Positions 14-4,494 of a DNA stretch of 4,494 bases are shown piece by piece. Within the stretch, counting starts at the first letter, position 1; each line of letters starts with the position of its first letter. The translations under genes were made by a program, and so were the position numbers. The stretch is from the IMG/VR virus record IMGVR_UViG_2698536450_000011, one strand, 5' to 3'. The notes under the pieces were generated by a model that was given only the letters and a program-made list of their open reading frames with translations, did no database searches and was not told the origin of the DNA. The DNA is from a virus (taxonomy: Duplodnaviria > Heunggongvirae > Uroviricota > Caudoviricetes).

Positions 14-271
14 ATGATGTCCCTCTGGGATGCGCTCCGGATGAATATGATGATCTCATATCAGGAACTTGTTCGCACCTTCCCTAATGCTGGTTGCTCT
101 TTTTCTGTCCCTCGCCTGGGTGATGTTGTCTTCGTCGGGGCTGCTGGGGTGACAGTGACTGATGACATCAGCAGAGCGCTGGCTTTTGCTATTAAGTGGG
201 TGGCTGTTGGTATTGCTGTGTCTCCGATGCTGTATGGGCTGGCAAAACTGGTCATTGCGCTGAAATCGTGA
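14..271 (+). CDS. hypothetical small protein (85 aa) with hydrophobic C-terminal segment; possible lysis-cassette-associated membrane protein
   Basis: Complete ORF in track. ATG at 14 overlaps a TGA at 15-17 in another frame (ATGA), consistent with coupling to an upstream gene ending at the window edge. C-terminal ~30 aa (ISRALAFAIKWVAVGIAVSPMLYGLAKLVIAL) is hydrophobic and long enough for one transmembrane helix. This segment is paralogous to the downstream 28-aa ORF, with differences concentrated at third codon positions, which argues that it is really coding. No family recognised. Start uncertain (ATGs at 14, 17, 41, 47, 50). Confidence 0.35.
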   Translation: MMSLWDALRMNMMISYQELVRTFPNAGCSFSVPRLGDVVFVGAAGVTVTDDISRALAFAIKWVAVGIAVSPMLYGLAKLVIALKS

Positions 272-282
272 ACTTTAAAAAG

Positions 283-369
283 ATGAGTGCTGAACTTATT
301 CGGGCAATGGCATTTGCCATTCGTATTGTGGCCATTGCTGTTCTGGTCTGGGCAATCCGTTGGTGGTGA
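283..369 (+). CDS. hypothetical 28-aa hydrophobic peptide ([28 protein letters not shown]), stop 1 nt before Rz start
   Basis: Hand-translated; not in the ORF track because it is under the length cutoff. ATG 283-285, TGA 367-369, Rz ATG at 371. Almost entirely one hydrophobic helix. Resembles the C-terminal segment of ORF 14-271 (RA-AFAI--VA motif conserved; codons differ mainly at wobble positions). Weak Shine-Dalgarno (aaaaag). Confidence 0.3.
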
Positions 370-370
370 A

Positions 371-838
371 ATGAACCGCGTTCTGTGTGTGGTCATCATT
401 GCTCTGCTGGTGGCCTGTGGTGCGCTTAGTCTGGGGCTGAATCATTACCGCGATAACGCCATCACTTACAAAGCGCAGCGCGATAAAAAAGCCAGTGAAC
501 TGAAGCTGGCGAACGCAACCATTACTGATATGCAGGTGCGCCAGCGCGATGTTGCTGCGCTCGATGCAAAATACTCGAGGGAATTAGCCGATGCGAGAGC
601 TGAAAATGAAACTCTGCGTGCTGATGTTGCCGCTGGTCGTAAGCGCCTGCGGATCAACGCCACCTGCTCCGGTACCGTGCGTGAAGCCACCGGCACCTCC
701 GGCGTGGATAATGCAACCGGCCCCCGACTGGCAGACACCGCTGAACGGGATTATTTCATCCTCAGAGAACGGTTGATGACAATGCAGAAGCAGCTGGAAG
801 GGGCGCAGGAATATATCCGTACTCAGTGCCTGAAATAA
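371..838 (+). CDS. Rz: Rz-type i-spanin (inner-membrane spanin subunit), lambda Rz-like
   Basis: Translation from ATG 371 ([68 protein letters not shown]...[37 protein letters not shown]) closely parallels phage lambda Rz as I recall it: N-terminal TM anchor, coiled-coil periplasmic domain, conserved [15 protein letters not shown] and [11 protein letters not shown] blocks. TAA at 836-838. The track ORF starts at an upstream GTG (287), but homology favours ATG 371. Confidence 0.9.
591..776 (+). CDS. Rz1: Rz1-type o-spanin (outer-membrane lipoprotein spanin subunit), embedded in +1 frame within Rz
   Basis: ORF fully inside Rz in a different frame, the classic embedded Rz/Rz1 architecture. Translation [61 protein letters not shown] has a lipoprotein signal with lipobox VVSAC and a proline-rich mature region, resembling lambda Rz1. 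Shine-Dalgarno GAGGGA at 577-582, 8 nt upstream of ATG 591. Confidence 0.85.
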
Positions 839-1113
839 GTTTTGTTGATGCGCCGTATCGTCGCTGTATTCCCTCATTAACAGAGACCGCAGCCCGACAG
901 GGAGACTCCTCTGCGCGAGTGTGCGGGGATAATCAAAAACGATACACACCGGGGTTTACCGCGTTAACGGAGCGCGGCGTTGTCCCCTCATAGTCGCCAG
1001 TCCGGTGCGATGGTGGAAGAAACAGGACGATGTGTTACCTCGCAAGCCCTGTTATGTCATGTGTCTGATTTGTGATTTAAGTCGGATAATTGTCGTTGCC
1101 ATTAAGCAGAGGA

Positions 1114-1144
1114 TTGATGACCGACAGGGCGGCATTGTTAGAAT
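1114..1144 (+). promoter_or_regulatory. candidate sigma70 promoter with extended -10 for the lipoprotein gene
   Basis: TTGATG (1114-1119) as a -35-like hexamer; TGtTAGAAT (1136-1144) matches an extended -10 (TGnTATAAT-like). Spacer is 19 nt, which is suboptimal. Predicted TSS near 1151, about 20-25 nt upstream of the lipoprotein start. Sequence-pattern only. Confidence 0.3.
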
Positions 1145-1170
1145 AAGACTTATTTTTATCTGTGCGGGGA

Positions 1171-1503
1171 ATGAAAATGAAAAGAAATCTTCCGTTAATT
1201 ATTTTGTTGTCTTCTCTGGTTATGGGCTGTACGCAACATAAAACAGATATGCCCCGACAGTTGGTTAAGGCATTACCACAATATCCGGCCTATGCAGCGG
1301 CAAATTATATAAAGGGACGGGTTGATGTGAGGTTTGATATTGGTGCTGATGGTACTGTCACCCGAATTGAGTTTATTCGTTCAGAGCCGCACCATCTGTT
1401 TGATGAGCAGGTTGTAAAGGCGATGGCAAAATGGCGATTTGAGAAGGACAGGCCGTGTAAAGGCGTGAAGAAAACGTTTATCTTTAGTCCTTCTGCACCC
1501 TGA
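1171..1503 (+). CDS. lipoprotein with TonB C-terminal-like domain (prophage moron candidate)
   Basis: N-terminus MKMKRNLPLIILLSSLVMGC is a lipoprotein signal peptide (lipobox-like LVMG-C; Thr at +2, which would favour outer-membrane sorting). The mature part, LPQYPAYAAANYIKGRVDVRFDIGADGTVTRIEFIRSEPHHLFDEQVVKAMAKWRFEK, matches the TonB C-terminal domain signature (YP..A......G.V.V.F.I..DG.V..I.......F....V.A...WRF) as I know it from E. coli TonB. The gene is visibly AT-richer than its neighbours. Start ambiguous: GTG 1162, ATG 1171 or ATG 1177 (GGGGA at 1166-1170 fits best as SD for 1177). TGA at 1501-1503. Confidence 0.75.
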   Translation: MKMKRNLPLIILLSSLVMGCTQHKTDMPRQLVKALPQYPAYAAANYIKGRVDVRFDIGADGTVTRIEFIRSEPHHLFDEQVVKAMAKWRFEKDRPCKGVKKTFIFSPSAP

Positions 1504-1634
1504 TTATTTCATCAGAAATTAATTATCACTCTGTTGTTATTCTGTACATCCCGGCAGGGTAAGTCTTGTTCCGTCGGATATGAAGATGAAATATTGTGGG
1601 AGGACAGTGGGTACCTGCTCCTGTAACCGAACGT

Positions 1635-1835
1635 TCATTTCTCGTTATTTGTCATGCTGGCCGGGCGCAGATGCGTTGCATCTGTTGCCAGCCTTCTCCT
1701 GCAGGCTTCAATAACCCACGCTGAAAAGTTACCGGACCCTTTATGCTCAAGGGCGATGTTGATCTGTTCAATCATGTGATTGGGGAAACGGATATTGCGG
1801 GTTGTGGTTCTGCGGGTACGGTTTTTCGATGACAT
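1635..1835 (-). CDS. small ribbon-helix-helix (Arc/CopG/MetJ-like) DNA-binding protein, 66 aa
   Basis: Minus-strand ORF. Start preferred at the internal ATG (complement of 1833-1835), which is preceded by a strong SD, AAGGA, in gtAAAGGAaataaatATG; the track's longer version begins at a GTG at 1895. Translation MSSKNRTRRTTTRNIRFPNHMIEQINIALEHKGSGNFSAWVIEACRRRLATDATHLRPASMTNNEK has the RHH pattern: basic N-tail, beta-strand (RNIRFP), helix A, G-x-S/N turn, helix B; compare Arc NLRWPREVLDLVRKVAEENGRSVNSEIYQRVMESF. Oriented opposite to all the other genes. Confidence 0.65.
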   Translation of the reverse strand: MSSKNRTRRTTTRNIRFPNHMIEQINIALEHKGSGNFSAWVIEACRRRLATDATHLRPASMTNNEK

Positions 1836-1876
1836 ATTTATTTCCTTTACTGATTGCCATATGACGGGGATTTTAC

Positions 1877-2242
1877 ATGGCTGAGCTTCGTACACTCCAG
1901 AGCAGAATCAAAACACTGAATACCCGACGGGTGAATATTCTGAAGGGTGAACAGCGTCGTGTCAGTGGCAGTGCACGTGTTTCCCTCAAGCGTCATATCT
2001 GGCTCAGGGACGCCGGGCAGTGCCGTCTCTGTGGTCGTGTGGTTGACCTCTGTGACAGTGAACTCGATCACCGAATTGCACTTCAGTTCGGTGGTGGTAA
2101 TGAGGAGACGAATCTCTGGACGCTCTGTACCGAATGCCATCGACAAAAGTCTGCTCGTGAAGCGGCGAGTGATATGCCGGACCCGACGCTGCCGGAGGTG
2201 TCCGGAGGTAGTGGCAGAGAGGACGACATCATCGGACTGTAA
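1877..2242 (+). CDS. HNH endonuclease (phage packaging-associated, HK97 gp74-like)
   Basis: 121 aa. Contains CRLCGRVVDLCDSELDHRIALQFGGGNEETNLWTLCTECHRQK: C-x2-C ... C-x2-C zinc-binding pairs with the His (DH), Asn (NLW) and His (CH) of the HNH motif. SD GGGGA at 1865-1869, 7 nt before ATG 1877. Lies immediately upstream of the putative cos region and terminase genes, the typical position of packaging-associated HNH genes in HK97-like phages. Confidence 0.9.
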   Translation: MAELRTLQSRIKTLNTRRVNILKGEQRRVSGSARVSLKRHIWLRDAGQCRLCGRVVDLCDSELDHRIALQFGGGNEETNLWTLCTECHRQKSAREAASDMPDPTLPEVSGGSGREDDIIGL

Positions 2243-2532
2243 CCCGACCCCGGGGGGGTATCATCCGGCGTAAAAAACGATCGCTTTGGACACCGCGCCC
2301 CCTCTCACGCAGAGAAAAAATTCCTGTTTCAGGGCAGTTAACATGTTAACTGGCTGCCCGGGCATTTTTGCGGTTTTTATCTTTATTATTCAGTTTGTTG
2401 TGCGAAAAAAATGTTAACTGGCTTTTTCAGCAAATGTTAACCAGGCAGCAGTTAACATTTGCGGCATGAGACGCCGGGAAAAATGGGCTGAACCATACCC
2501 GGCTGAGTGCGTTCTGGACCCGGGAGGAGGCT
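2243..2532. other. putative cos / terminase-recognition region (non-coding interval between HNH and terS)
   Basis: 290 bp with no credible ORF, between the HNH gene and terS. The proximal part is GC-rich, with CCCCGGGGGGG at 2248-2258. The distal part is AT-rich, with several A- and T-tracts and a cluster of GTTAACAT-type repeats. Position is analogous to cos in HK97-like and lambda-like genomes. The exact cosN nick sites cannot be determined from sequence alone. Confidence 0.4.
2335..2462. repeat. cluster of five copies of a ~12-bp motif (ATGTTAACTGGC-like) in both orientations, including an 18-bp perfect palindrome and a 12-bp-arm inverted repeat
   Basis: Read directly. 18-bp perfect palindrome CAGTTAACATGTTAACTG at 2335-2352. 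Exact 13-bp direct repeat ATGTTAACTGGCT at 2343-2355 and 2411-2423. Inverted repeat GCAAATGTTAAC (2430-2441) / GTTAACATTTGC (2451-2462) with a 9-bp spacer. Variant copy ATGTTAACCAGGC at 2434-2446. Confidence 0.85.
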
Positions 2533-3096
2533 GTGCTGACAACGCAAAAACGAAAATTTGCGCTGGCGCTCATGTCCGGGAAAAACAAAACAGCGTCAGC
2601 CATTGCCGCCGGTTATTCGGCGAAGACAGCCAGGGTTAAAGGCTTGCAGCTGGCAAAAGATCCGGAGGTGCTCGCGTTTATAGCCCGTAAACAGTGCGAG
2701 ACGGTGGAGGTGGATGAGGTTCCTGTTTACCGGCAGAAAAAATCAGAGCAGGAGGATAAACCCCGTCGCCGTGAGGCGGCTGCAATACCACAGCCGGACG
2801 AAACAAATCCGGAGATGCCACCGTCCGCGGTGATGTCTCCTGGTATTGAATATATGGAGGATGGTCTTCCCGATCCGGTGAAAGCCATGGGGCGGATCCT
2901 GGTGGAAAACCTCTGCATTGATCCGAAACTGGCACTGGATGCGGCCTGGCGTCTGGCGCAGTTCACGCACCATAAAAAAGGGGATACCGGGAAAAAATCG
3001 GCAAAAGGTGATGCCGCGAAAAAAGCGGCTAACCGTTTTGCGGTGCCACCGCCACCCCGACTGGTGGTGAATAACGATAATGAGGGCAACGGATGA
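2533..3096 (+). CDS. terS: terminase small subunit (TerS)
   Basis: 187 aa. N-terminal region KRKFALALMSGKNKTASAIAAGYSAKTARVKGLQLAKDPEVLAFIARKQ matches the HTH signature of phage small terminase subunits (..A...AGYS.KTA...G..LL..P.V...I). Strong SD GGGAGGAGG at 2522-2530 before GTG 2533; an alternative ATG start is at 2572. Basic Lys/Ala-rich C-terminus. The stop overlaps the terL start (ATGA at 3093-3096). Confidence 0.85.
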   Translation: MLTTQKRKFALALMSGKNKTASAIAAGYSAKTARVKGLQLAKDPEVLAFIARKQCETVEVDEVPVYRQKKSEQEDKPRRREAAAIPQPDETNPEMPPSAVMSPGIEYMEDGLPDPVKAMGRILVENLCIDPKLALDAAWRLAQFTHHKKGDTGKKSAKGDAAKKAANRFAVPPPPRLVVNNDNEGNG

Positions 3097-4494
3097 TACC
3101 TGTATGGAGCACAGCCTGCCCGGACTGGGCAGAGCGCCTGAAAAAGGGGCTGTCGATTATTCCGGATCCGATTTATCCGGACGAGGCCGCACATGCCCTG
3201 GCGATTTTTAAACAACTGCGGATTGTGGATGCACCGGGTAGCCCTACGTTCGGGGAGTCCTGTGCACCGTGGGTGTTTGACCTGGTGGCGGCCCTGTTTG
3301 GCTCCTACGATGCGCAGACCGGTGTACGCCATATCAAGGAAGTTTTTATCCTTATCCCCAAGAAAAACTCGAAGTCCACGCTGGCCGCGGGGATCATGAT
3401 GACTGCACTGTTACTGAACTGGCGGCAGGCGGCGGGTTACACGATTCTGGCCCCGACTGTGGAGGTGGCGGCCAACGCCTTCAACCCTGCCCGGGATATG
3501 GTACGACGTGACGATGATCTGGATGACCTCTGCCAGGTACAGACCCATATCCGGACCATCACCCACCGGGTGACAGACACCACCCTGAAGGTGGTGGCAG
3601 CCGATCCGAATACGGTGTCCGGTATCAAGTCCGTGGGTACGCTGATTGATGAGTTGTGGCTGTTTGGCAAGCAGTGCAAGGCGGAGGACATGTTACGTGA
3701 AGCCATCGGCGGGCTTGCCTCCCGTCCGGAAGGATTTGTGGTGTACACAACCACCCAGTCGAATGAACCGCCTGCCGGGGTGTTCAGACAGAAACTGCAG
3801 TACGCCCGGGATGTCCGTGACGGCAAAATTCATGATCCGCACTTTCTGCCGGTGATATTTGAACACCCTCCTGAAATGGTGGAAAGCGGGGCTCACCTGC
3901 TGATGGAAAACCTCGCCATGGTCAATCCTAATCTCGGCTATTCAGTGGATGAGGCCTTTCTGTACCGGGAGTACCGTAAAGCCCGGGAAGCCGGTGAAGA
4001 GACATTCCGGGGGTTCATGTCAAAACACGCCAATGTGGAAATTGGTCTTGCCCTGCGCTCTGACCGCTGGGCGGGGGCTGATTTCTGGGAAGAGCAGGGC
4101 CGTTGTATCAGCCTGGACGATATCCTGCGTCGTGCTGATGTGGTGACGGTGGGGATTGACGGCGGAGGGCTGGATGATCTGCTGGGGATGTATGTGATTG
4201 GGCGTGACCGGGAGACCCGCGAATGGCTGGGCTGGGGCCATGCCTGGGCGCATGAAACCGCGGTGGTCCGACGGAAGAGCGAGGCGTCCCGGTTTCAGGA
4301 TCTTGTTGCCTGTGGAGATATGACCATTGTCCGTCGGGTCGGGGATGACACGGCGGAAGTGGCGGAGTATGTGCGTCGTATTCATGAGGCTGAGTTACTG
4401 GATCATATCGGTATTGACCCGTCAGGTGTGGGGCAGATTCTGGATTCACTGGCGGAAGCCGGGATCCCCGATGAGAGTGTGGTGGGGATAAGCC
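3093..4494 (+). CDS. terL: terminase large subunit (TerL), 5' partial, continues beyond window end
   Basis: Hand-translated codon by codon from ATG 3093 to 4494: no in-frame stop, 467 codons. It is missing from the ORF track only because it is open-ended. Sequence MIPVWSTACPDWAERLKKGLSIIPDPIYPDEAAHALAIFKQLRIVDAPGSPTFGESCAPWVFDLVAALFG...VFILIPKKNSKSTLAAGIMMTALL...VTVGIDGGGLDDLLGMYVIGRDRE... has a Walker-A-like PKKNSKST segment and a later acidic segment (GIDGGGLDD) consistent with an ATPase followed by a nuclease domain. All track ORFs between 3193 and 4449 lie in other frames or antisense within it. Position directly after terS with start/stop overlap. Confidence 0.88.
   Translation, partial: MIPVWSTACPDWAERLKKGLSIIPDPIYPDEAAHALAIFKQLRIVDAPGSPTFGESCAPWVFDLVAALFGSYDAQTGVRHIKEVFILIPKKNSKSTLAAGIMMTALLLNWRQAAGYTILAPTVEVAANAFNPARDMVRRDDDLDDLCQVQTHIRTITHRVTDTTLKVVAADPNTVSGIKSVGTLIDELWLFGKQCKAEDMLREAIGGLASRPEGFVVYTTTQSNEPPAGVFRQKLQYARDVRDGKIHDPHFLPVIFEHPPEMVESGAHLLMENLAMVNPNLGYSVDEAFLYREYRKAREAGEETFRGFMSKHANVEIGLALRSDRWAGADFWEEQGRCISLDDILRRADVVTVGIDGGGLDDLLGMYVIGRDRETREWLGWGHAWAHETAVVRRKSEASRFQDLVACGDMTIVRRVGDDTAEVAEYVRRIHEAELLDHIGIDPSGVGQILDSLAEAGIPDESVVGIS

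Follow-up and report, generated by a model that had tools for sequence, protein, structure and literature searches.

The DNA analyzed here (referred to below as the window) is the whole 4,494-nucleotide (nt) stretch of the viral record IMGVR_UViG_2698536450_000011 (Caudoviricetes), the source context of which is a lambdoid prophage of pathogenic Escherichia coli. The window contains, in this order, two small open reading frames (ORFs), Rz/Rz1, a gene encoding a lipoprotein with a TonB C-terminal domain (the TonB_C gene, the subject of this study), a DUF3950 gene, an HNH endonuclease gene and the genes for TerS and TerL. This order places the TonB_C gene between the lysis cassette and the packaging module, at the position of bor, as had been stated in the initial annotation. 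Its coding sequence (positions 1177–1503, + strand; 108 amino acids (aa) plus stop codon) was identified by PGAP (WP_000828072.1), Pfam, NCBIfam and BLASTP. The initial annotation had the gene begin at position 1114, which is incorrect, since this position belongs to a promoter-like site and the coding sequence starts at 1177. An alternative start codon (ATG at 1171) would give a protein of 110 aa. The start at 1177 was preferred because direct reading of the sequence identified a Shine-Dalgarno motif (GGGGA; 1166–1170, + strand) 6 nt upstream of this ATG, and because the same codon was chosen by PGAP for WP_000828072.1.

The N-terminal part of the protein is a signal peptide MKRNLPLIILLSSLVMG that includes the lipidated residue Cys18 (1177–1230, + strand; Cys codon 1228–1230). 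It is composed of a charged n-region (MKRN), a hydrophobic h-region (LPLIILLSSL) and a lipobox (VMGC), and it fits the PROSITE PS51257-type pattern. The lipobox pattern with its Cys is present in 35 of 38 members of the protein family described below, none of which has an Asp at position +2. In the window protein residue +2 is a Thr, which predicts sorting of the lipoprotein to the outer membrane. The lipid anchor is connected with the following domain by a 7-residue tether (TQHKTDM; 1231–1251, + strand); across the family, roughly 6–15 residues (about 7–10 in most members) separate the Cys from the conserved Pro equivalent to P153 of TonB.

The remaining part of the protein (residues 26–108, equivalent to TonB 153–235; 1252–1500, + strand) is a TonB C-terminal domain. 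It was matched by the Pfam model TonB_C (PF03544) with 55.3 bits (gathering cut-off 24.6) and by the NCBIfam model TIGR01352 with 55.1 bits (cut-off 27.1); TonB_C and TonB_2 are the only Pfam matches of the protein. BLASTP comparison with residues 153–230 of E. coli TonB revealed 38% identity over 78 ungapped residues (E 4e-21), and the closest solved structures by sequence are TonB C-terminal domains throughout. An AlphaFold2 model was generated from the alignment of the 38 family sequences, and a single-sequence model (predicted local distance difference test score (pLDDT) 53) was set aside. The mean pLDDT of the model is 85, with values above 95 across the TonB_C domain. Foldseek comparison with the PDB gave 1u07, 2gsk_B and 2grx_C as the best matches (probability 1.00; root-mean-square deviation (rmsd) 1.1–1.4 Å; template modeling (TM) score 0.88–0.91). 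TonB bound to BtuB (2gsk_B) and TonB bound to FhuA (2grx_C) each superpose on the model with an rmsd of 1.1 Å. The fold matches within the PDB were exclusively to TonB or TolA, and no structure match was found in BFVD at E≤1e-3.

Alignments showed that the equivalents of TonB Y163, P164, F180, G186, F202, W213, Y215 (as F) and F230 are retained in the protein. Work of the Postle laboratory is said to have found Y163, F180, G186, F202, W213, Y215 and F230 of TonB to be functionally sensitive. The domain has also kept the edge strand KKTFIFS (TonB 225–231) and the PRxL...P-Q-Y-P lead-in. The inner-membrane anchor and the proline-rich spacer of TonB are absent, as the protein is 108 aa in length, with residues 1–18 occupied by the signal and the domain beginning at residue 26. 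Full-length TonB models (NCBIfam PRK10819 equivalogs) scored 49–74 bits against cut-offs of 265–448, and only their profile positions ~152–240 were matched. The protein thus belongs to the TonB_C domain family but is not a TonB. The profile search, the structure prediction and the lipobox check, all proposed in the initial annotation, therefore agree with its description of a stand-alone lipoprotein that has a TonB C-terminal-like domain and lacks the N-terminal anchor and proline-rich spacer.

The gene is widespread in E. coli. The window-type gene was found in 415 of 5426 complete genomes, and a variant of the phage 21 type, 71% identical to it, in 1225 of 5426, including that of strain Nissle 1917; taken together, both types are present in roughly 30% of the complete genomes. 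The phage 21 copy is annotated as “TonB C-terminal domain protein” and lies beside bor, near cos, and the Nissle 1917 copy adjoins iss. Positions 1100–1520 of the window are 100% identical to chromosomal sequences of Shiga toxin-producing (STEC) and enteropathogenic (EPEC) E. coli, e.g. strain 97-3250 and O26:H11 isolates. In the 97-3250 prophage, the TonB_C gene is located between the lysis and head genes, and the effector genes nleA, nleH and nleF are found at the far end. In this prophage (accession no. NZ_CP027599.1; locus L100, positions 6057–11992), an IS66-family element interrupts the host-specificity gene J and the integrase gene carries a frameshift, so that this prophage is probably defective; its TonB_C gene is intact nonetheless.

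Comparison of the window type with the phage 21 variant gave a dN/dS of ~0.11, with synonymous sites saturated, and all 71 gene copies in the fetched loci (mostly from IMG/VR) are intact. The gene is, by this sequence comparison, under purifying selection. Both observations argue that it is functional and not a decaying “partial tonB”.

A first scan of viral contigs returned only near-identical copies from E. coli prophages and was uninformative as to diversity. HMMER and profile searches revealed dozens of lipoproteins of ~104–130 aa that share this architecture. They originate from Klebsiella, Raoultella, Serratia, Erwinia, Pantoea, Rahnella, Pseudescherichia and Salmonella Choleraesuis. All family members are roughly equally distant from E. 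coli TonB (27–42% identity). Chromosomal members are found in Klebsiella, Raoultella, Serratia, Erwinia, Pantoea and Salmonella. Their neighbors are lacZ/lacI in Raoultella and dsbB/nhaB/fadR in Serratia grimesii, and the Pantoea, Erwinia and Salmonella members lie in unrelated neighborhoods. A tblastn search with a panel of lambdoid lysis and terminase proteins against 15 genome loci matched only the locus of Serratia montpellierensis, which indicates that most of the distant members lie outside lambdoid prophages; inspection of ORFs and Pfam scans agree with this result. The gene is not the product of a one-off capture of tonB but belongs to an older family of lipoproteins of ~110 aa, which are also chromosomally encoded.

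The phage-borne members (from E. coli, Klebsiella, Serratia and Rahnella) are in every case located between the lysis cassette, which they directly follow, and the terminase genes. One example is Klebsiella phage ST13-OXA48phi12.4. The gene order is holin, lysozyme, Rz-like and TonB_C gene in the S. montpellierensis prophage, and Q, holins, endolysin, Rz, TonB_C gene and terminase in the Rahnella prophage. The Serratia prophage copy shares 63% identity with a Serratia chromosomal copy, and the Klebsiella phage copy shares 87% with a Raoultella copy, whereas each of these phage copies is only ~40% identical to those of E. coli phages. The simplest reading of these comparisons is that phages have repeatedly captured a host family into the same slot. 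The occurrence of the gene in phages from four or more genera, together with the closeness of the copies to those of the same or a sister genus, points to such repeated capture and suggests that the gene pays for phages. In the chromosome of Raoultella ornithinolytica, the TonB_C gene adjoins a gene for a DUF1440 membrane protein (locus L084, positions 8738–9301). A DUF1440 gene is also present ~3 kb upstream of the TonB_C gene in Klebsiella phage ST13-OXA48phi12.4 (locus L003, positions 277–903), and this shared gene is possibly a relic of joint capture from a chromosome.

The regions upstream of the family genes were analyzed for Fur boxes. Both strands of 16 family loci (209 kb in total) were scanned with the 19-bp consensus GATAATGATAATCATTATC, allowing up to 4 mismatches. 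The scan identified nine sites in all, six of which lie within 120 bp upstream of a family gene (0.08 expected). This enrichment (binomial P ~5e-11) concerns 6 of the 16 loci, among which those of Klebsiella and Raoultella are orthologs of one another and hence not independent. The site of Serratia grimesii has 2 mismatches, those of the Serratia prophage, Klebsiella and Erwinia typographi 3 each, and those of two Raoultella loci 4 each. Among loci obtained later, those of Pantoea agglomerans and an Erwinia sp. have 3-mismatch sites 17–18 bp upstream of the start codon; in a third locus, the site has 5 mismatches. Most of the chromosomal members are thus preceded by a strong site of this kind. 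Fur-box-like sites are located at positions 7931–7949 (locus L090), 7897–7915 (L095), 7922–7940 (L088), 1609–1627 (L092), 7972–7990 (L084), 7967–7985 (L087), 3037–3055 (L103) and 2966–2984 (L105). On the basis of these motifs the family very probably belongs to the Fur regulon of several genera, and such membership would tie it functionally to TonB-dependent iron uptake.

In the window, a weak Fur-box-like sequence, GATAAAAATAAGTCTTATT (1142–1160, − strand; 13 of 19 matches), overlaps the −10 element and the likely transcription start. It is not significant alone; in relatives from other genera, the corresponding position is occupied by sites with 2–4 mismatches. Considered as a Fur box for the promoter in the window, this best site is indistinguishable from background. 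The consensus scan revealed no convincing Fur box in the window or in the phage 21 copies, and no good site in the Rahnella prophage and Klebsiella phage copies. The pattern of sites suggests that most phage copies have been uncoupled from Fur/iron control.

As regards other genes of phage 21, its b region contains sitB, sitC and sitD, encoding an iron/manganese ABC transporter (accession no. OL657228.1, 21967–24502; locus L107). The conversion-type cargoes of this phage are thus the sit genes, bor and the TonB_C lipoprotein gene, and their iron theme may be meaningful or a coincidence.

Comparison of the window with the Shiga toxin 1 (Stx1) phage LC567821 by blastn showed 93–95% identity over positions 368–1027 and 1681–4494 only. 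In place of the intervening 653 bp (1028–1680), which contain the TonB_C gene, LC567821 holds an unrelated sequence of 246 bp. The GC content is 42–45% over positions 1001–1600 and 53–58% in the flanks. Since the 653-bp block is replaced in LC567821 and coincides with the drop in GC content, it behaves as a moron cassette. The earlier view of the gene as a horizontally acquired moron, more AT-rich than the flanking phage genes, was thus supported by comparison with a sister Stx phage.

A sigma-70 promoter-like site is present upstream of the TonB_C gene (1117–1144, + strand). It consists of ATGACC and TAGAAT hexamers separated by 16 nt (9 of 12 hexamer matches) with an additional TG, which forms the extended −10 element TGTTAGAAT at 1136–1144. 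The sequence ATTGT(T/C)AGAATAAGAC forms a conserved island in a comparison with phage 21, amid an otherwise diverged stretch. The number of promoter-like sites in the region (two) is no better than chance (mean of 1.9 in shuffled sequence), and for this reason the promoter call is weak when taken alone. The promoter proposed in the initial annotation (1136–1144) therefore stands as a motif, with a −10 element conserved in phage 21, but not as a site in excess of those expected by chance. No intrinsic terminator-like site was found in 800–1950, i.e. on either side of the TonB_C gene. The gene runs in the direction of the late operon and no terminator precedes it, so that read-through by late transcription is expected; expression late in the lytic cycle is no less likely than in the lysogen.

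The non-coding region 845–1005, downstream of Rz, is ~85–97% conserved in ~400 records of lambdoid and Stx phages, i.e. more highly than the neighboring genes. Its presence whether or not the phages carry the TonB_C gene assigns it to the lambdoid backbone, outside the cassette. This region was considered as a candidate RNA and ruled out, since its folding was no better than that of shuffled sequences (z of −0.57 and +0.19), with no folding signal on either strand, and an Rfam search of 800–2600 gave no match.

Of the other genes of the window, Rz (i-spanin; 371–838, + strand; PF03245, 170 bits) ends the lysis cassette, and Rz1 (o-spanin; 591–776; PF06085, 76 bits) is embedded within it. Upstream of the TonB_C gene there is a short, putatively coding ORF (MVEETG...) of 21 aa in the window (1010–1075) and 45 aa in phage 21 (locus L002, positions 3352–3489), where its annotation is hypothetical protein; the 5′ part of this ORF has been kept in both phages. 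The YlcI/YnfO (DUF3950) gene (1635–1835, − strand; PF13132, 71.8 bits, and PGAP) extends with its 3′ end (1635–1680) into the cassette. The HNH endonuclease gene (1877–2242, + strand; PF01844) begins the packaging module and is followed by the genes for TerS (2533–3096) and TerL (3093 onward). In the gap between the HNH and TerS genes (2337–2458), five copies of ATGTTAAC (0.09 expected) are found in both orientations, some of them within longer repeats AAATGTTAACTGGCT. The ATGTTAAC repeats are probably terminase-binding sites in the cos/packaging region of an HNH-dependent phage.

Our best guess, judged from these sequence data, is that the lipoprotein interferes with or tunes TonB-dependent uptake. 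As to how it might do so, we tentatively propose, at somewhat less than even chances, that it acts as a decoy that docks on TonB boxes in competition with TonB. The functional hypothesis of the initial annotation, competition with host TonB that might block TonB-dependent phages or colicins or alter iron uptake, is reasonable in this light. With a Thr at +2, the lipoprotein would be sorted by the Lol pathway to the outer membrane's inner leaflet, and its short tether would keep the domain close to the periplasmic membrane face from which TonB boxes emerge. There the domain could dock on the TonB boxes of FhuA, BtuB, FepA and Cir, or on those of incoming colicins. Such docking is probable because the edge strand KKTFIFS and the PRxL...P-Q-Y-P segment, which are the pairing elements of TonB, have been kept. 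Since the protein has no anchor that could connect it with ExbB/ExbD, it could not transduce energy, and any binding to the box would have to compete with TonB; the docked domain would in this way damp TonB-dependent uptake. The expected outcome would be fewer infections by TonB-dependent phages and reduced killing by colicins of group B and by microcins, with iron uptake suffering to some extent. Expression would be from the late transcript and possibly also, in the lysogen, from the gene's own extended −10 promoter.

In favor of the decoy idea are the domain identity and fold with the retained residues, the family-wide lipobox and short tether, the Fur-box link of the family to the TonB/iron system, the repeated carriage by phages and the purifying selection. 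Several published observations also make it plausible. As summarized in PMC9841981, overexpression of TonB's periplasmic domain has an inhibitory effect on iron import (Howard, Herrmann, Stratilo and Braun 2001), and a TonB-box pentapeptide reduces colicin killing and infection by phi80 (Tuckman and Osburne 1992). A precedent for phage lipoproteins that act on a TonB-dependent transporter from the periplasmic side is provided by Llp of T5 and by prophage-encoded Cor. In the case of Llp, acylation is essential, and binding of TonB competes with Llp at the periplasmic face of FhuA (bioRxiv 10.64898/2026.03.26.714494). A PADLOC search of the protein gave only a chance-level match (E 0.038).

A number of observations weigh against the decoy mechanism. 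Judging from their Fur boxes, the chromosomal relatives are apparently induced by iron starvation, which is odd timing for a pure inhibitor of uptake, and the pairing of the TonB_C gene with the sitBCD importer in phage 21 hints at a pro-iron cargo. The lack of a convincing Fur box in the window and phage 21 copies and the chance-level number of promoter-like sites, both described above, count on the same side. So does the replacement of TonB R166, presumably a FhuA contact in the 2GRX structure, by Tyr across the family. The position equivalent to Q160 varies within the family (L, Y, Q, H and others). It is a Leu in the window protein, and in TonB a Q160L substitution is a suppressor of TonB-box mutations of FhuA and of colicin M (PMC11658791, PMC2533080); because of its variability in the family, this Leu was given no weight. 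Finally, the inhibition seen in the laboratory required overexpression. The expected induction by iron starvation, the sitBCD genes of phage 21, the Tyr at the R166 position and the fact that the function is predicted only keep our confidence in the decoy mechanism below an even chance. A broader version of it, in which the prophage gene would encode a natural, lipid-anchored dominant-negative copy of the TonB C-terminal domain that occupies the TonB boxes of many transporters, or of incoming colicins, simultaneously, gives lysogens broad protection and was repeatedly captured from a Fur-regulated chromosomal brake on uptake, is doubtful and, on these sequence comparisons, rather unlikely.

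The Fur sites of the chromosomal genes also open the possibility that the protein assists or regulates iron uptake and has no anti-phage role. The protein would then be an accessory or regulator of uptake, i.e. a normal Fur-regulated component on the outer-membrane side of TonB-dependent transport in some Enterobacterales, with which prophages supply E. coli as a fitness gene next to other iron cargo; it might pair with the C-terminal domain of TonB to hold it or hand it over, or pre-organize TonB boxes. TonB C-terminal domains dimerize in crystals (entry 1u07). Such a role would suit the strong Fur-box-like sites upstream of the Serratia, Klebsiella/Raoultella, Erwinia (two loci) and Pantoea members, the ordinary neighborhoods of the chromosomal genes (lacZ/lacI; dsbB/nhaB/fadR), the sitBCD genes and adjacent bor of phage 21, and the frequency of the phage 21 type in E. 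coli (1225 of 5426 genomes, including Nissle 1917, where it adjoins iss). However, a domain without a link to ExbBD cannot energize transport, no conserved partner gene lies beside the chromosomal copies, and the Fur box has been lost from most phage copies. Moreover, TonB is limiting relative to its transporters, which compete strongly for it (PMC9841981), so that any non-productive binder should inhibit uptake. On balance we consider an accessory role in iron uptake less likely than the decoy mechanism, but a serious rival to it. The TonB C-terminal domain is also reported to bind peptidoglycan and outer-membrane proteins other than receptors (Kaserer 2008; Higgs 2002), with Lpp and OmpA among the reported partners, which would fit a general envelope lipoprotein, either a peptidoglycan tether or a conversion factor like Bor/Iss that provides serum resistance or envelope stability. 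The gene shares its locus with bor/iss and its product is of similar size and likewise a predicted outer-membrane lipoprotein, but it has no match to the Bor family (TonB_C and TonB_2 being its only Pfam hits), the Fur-box association of its relatives points to iron, and the presence of bor or iss together with it in phage 21 and Nissle 1917 shows that they are not alternatives. A general envelope function therefore seems improbable to us.

The position of the gene, constantly after the lysis cassette, with which it is expected to be co-transcribed, raises the question of a spanin-like outer-membrane lipoprotein that assists the last step of lysis. The protein indeed belongs to phrog_1267 (E 1.3e-42), which is labeled “Rz-like spanin”. 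This label was rejected, as the members are TonB_C lipoproteins and a separate Rz1 is embedded in Rz; most likely it was carried over from the position of the gene. Canonical Rz/Rz1 are encoded in the window and an i-spanin/o-spanin pair is annotated in phage 21, the folded globular domain is unlike a short proline-rich o-spanin, sister phages exist without the cassette, and many members are chromosomal and far from lysis genes, all of which makes a role in lysis very improbable. It is even harder to credit that the gene is a non-functional remnant, a captured tonB fragment in decay, as might be gathered from the records of phages ev017 and Perceval (“partial tonB-like membrane protein”, “TonB fragment”) and from database entries with C-terminal frameshifts (P0010, P0012, P0013 and P0018). 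Against this stand the low dN/dS, the 71 of 71 intact copies, the lipoprotein signal that replaces the TonB N-terminus family-wide, the age of the family and its spread over many genera, and the nearly equal distance of all members from E. coli TonB. The reading of the gene as a tonB fragment was accordingly rejected on the evidence of selection and of the family.

The existence of the gene is not new, since databases already name its product as “TonB family protein”, “TonB C-terminal domain protein” or [quoted passage not shown]. A literature search found no paper on the function of the protein. As far as can be told, the new elements are the recognition of a distinct lipoprotein family, its repeated placement after phage lysis cassettes, the association of the chromosomal members with Fur boxes and the explicit decoy hypothesis. 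TonB-dependent transporters are gates for iron, vitamin B12, phages (T1, phi80 and newer isolates), group B colicins, microcins and siderophore-antibiotic conjugates. If the broader version of the decoy mechanism is true, a single protein of 108 aa would shield lysogens from TonB-dependent phages, group B colicins and siderophore-microcins, and such a decoy would be encoded by Nissle 1917, by many STEC and altogether by about 30% of the complete E. coli genomes. A widespread prophage gene that modulates all these transporters by way of the TonB box they have in common would have effects on the host range of phages used in therapy, on colicin and microcin ecology in the gut and on susceptibility to “Trojan horse” antibiotics; iron-dependent virulence would be affected in STEC and extraintestinal pathogenic E. 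coli (ExPEC), and the probiotic Nissle 1917 would be concerned as well. The protein would also be a natural tool to probe the interaction of TonB with its transporters. If a helper role is true, several enterobacterial genera would possess, in this family, a so far unrecognized part of their TonB system located in the outer membrane.

With TonB itself (C-terminal domain 153–239; 1U07, 2GSK and 2GRX) the prophage protein shares the fold of the domain, the aromatic and glycine residues, the PRxL...PxYP segment and the last β-strand. It lacks the transmembrane helix, the proline-rich rod and the connection with ExbB/ExbD and the proton-motive force, and is predicted to be lipid-anchored in the outer membrane, whereas TonB is anchored in the inner membrane. 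It resembles the periplasmic TonB fragments used in the laboratory in being a C-terminal portion of TonB in the periplasm without the energy-coupling anchor. Those fragments, however, are engineered, soluble and overexpressed, whereas the prophage gene is natural and its product, 38% identical to TonB, has a short lipid tether. At most, the protein would work in the manner of these fragments, and ecologically in that of Llp and Cor.

Llp (T5) and Cor (phi80, N15 and HK022) are likewise small lipoproteins of phages or prophages that act from the periplasmic side on a TonB-dependent transporter (FhuA), as the prophage protein would under the decoy hypothesis. They have no sequence or fold relation to it (Pfam, PDB and BFVD) and are specific for FhuA and allosteric, whereas for a mimic of the TonB C-terminal domain one would expect action on many transporters by way of the TonB box that they share. 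The lambda Bor and E. coli Iss proteins correspond to the prophage protein in their slot (after Rz and before cos/terminase), similar size, lipoprotein nature and moron-like character, but they are unrelated to it in sequence, and bor lies on the opposite strand, whereas the TonB_C gene is co-directional with the late operon.

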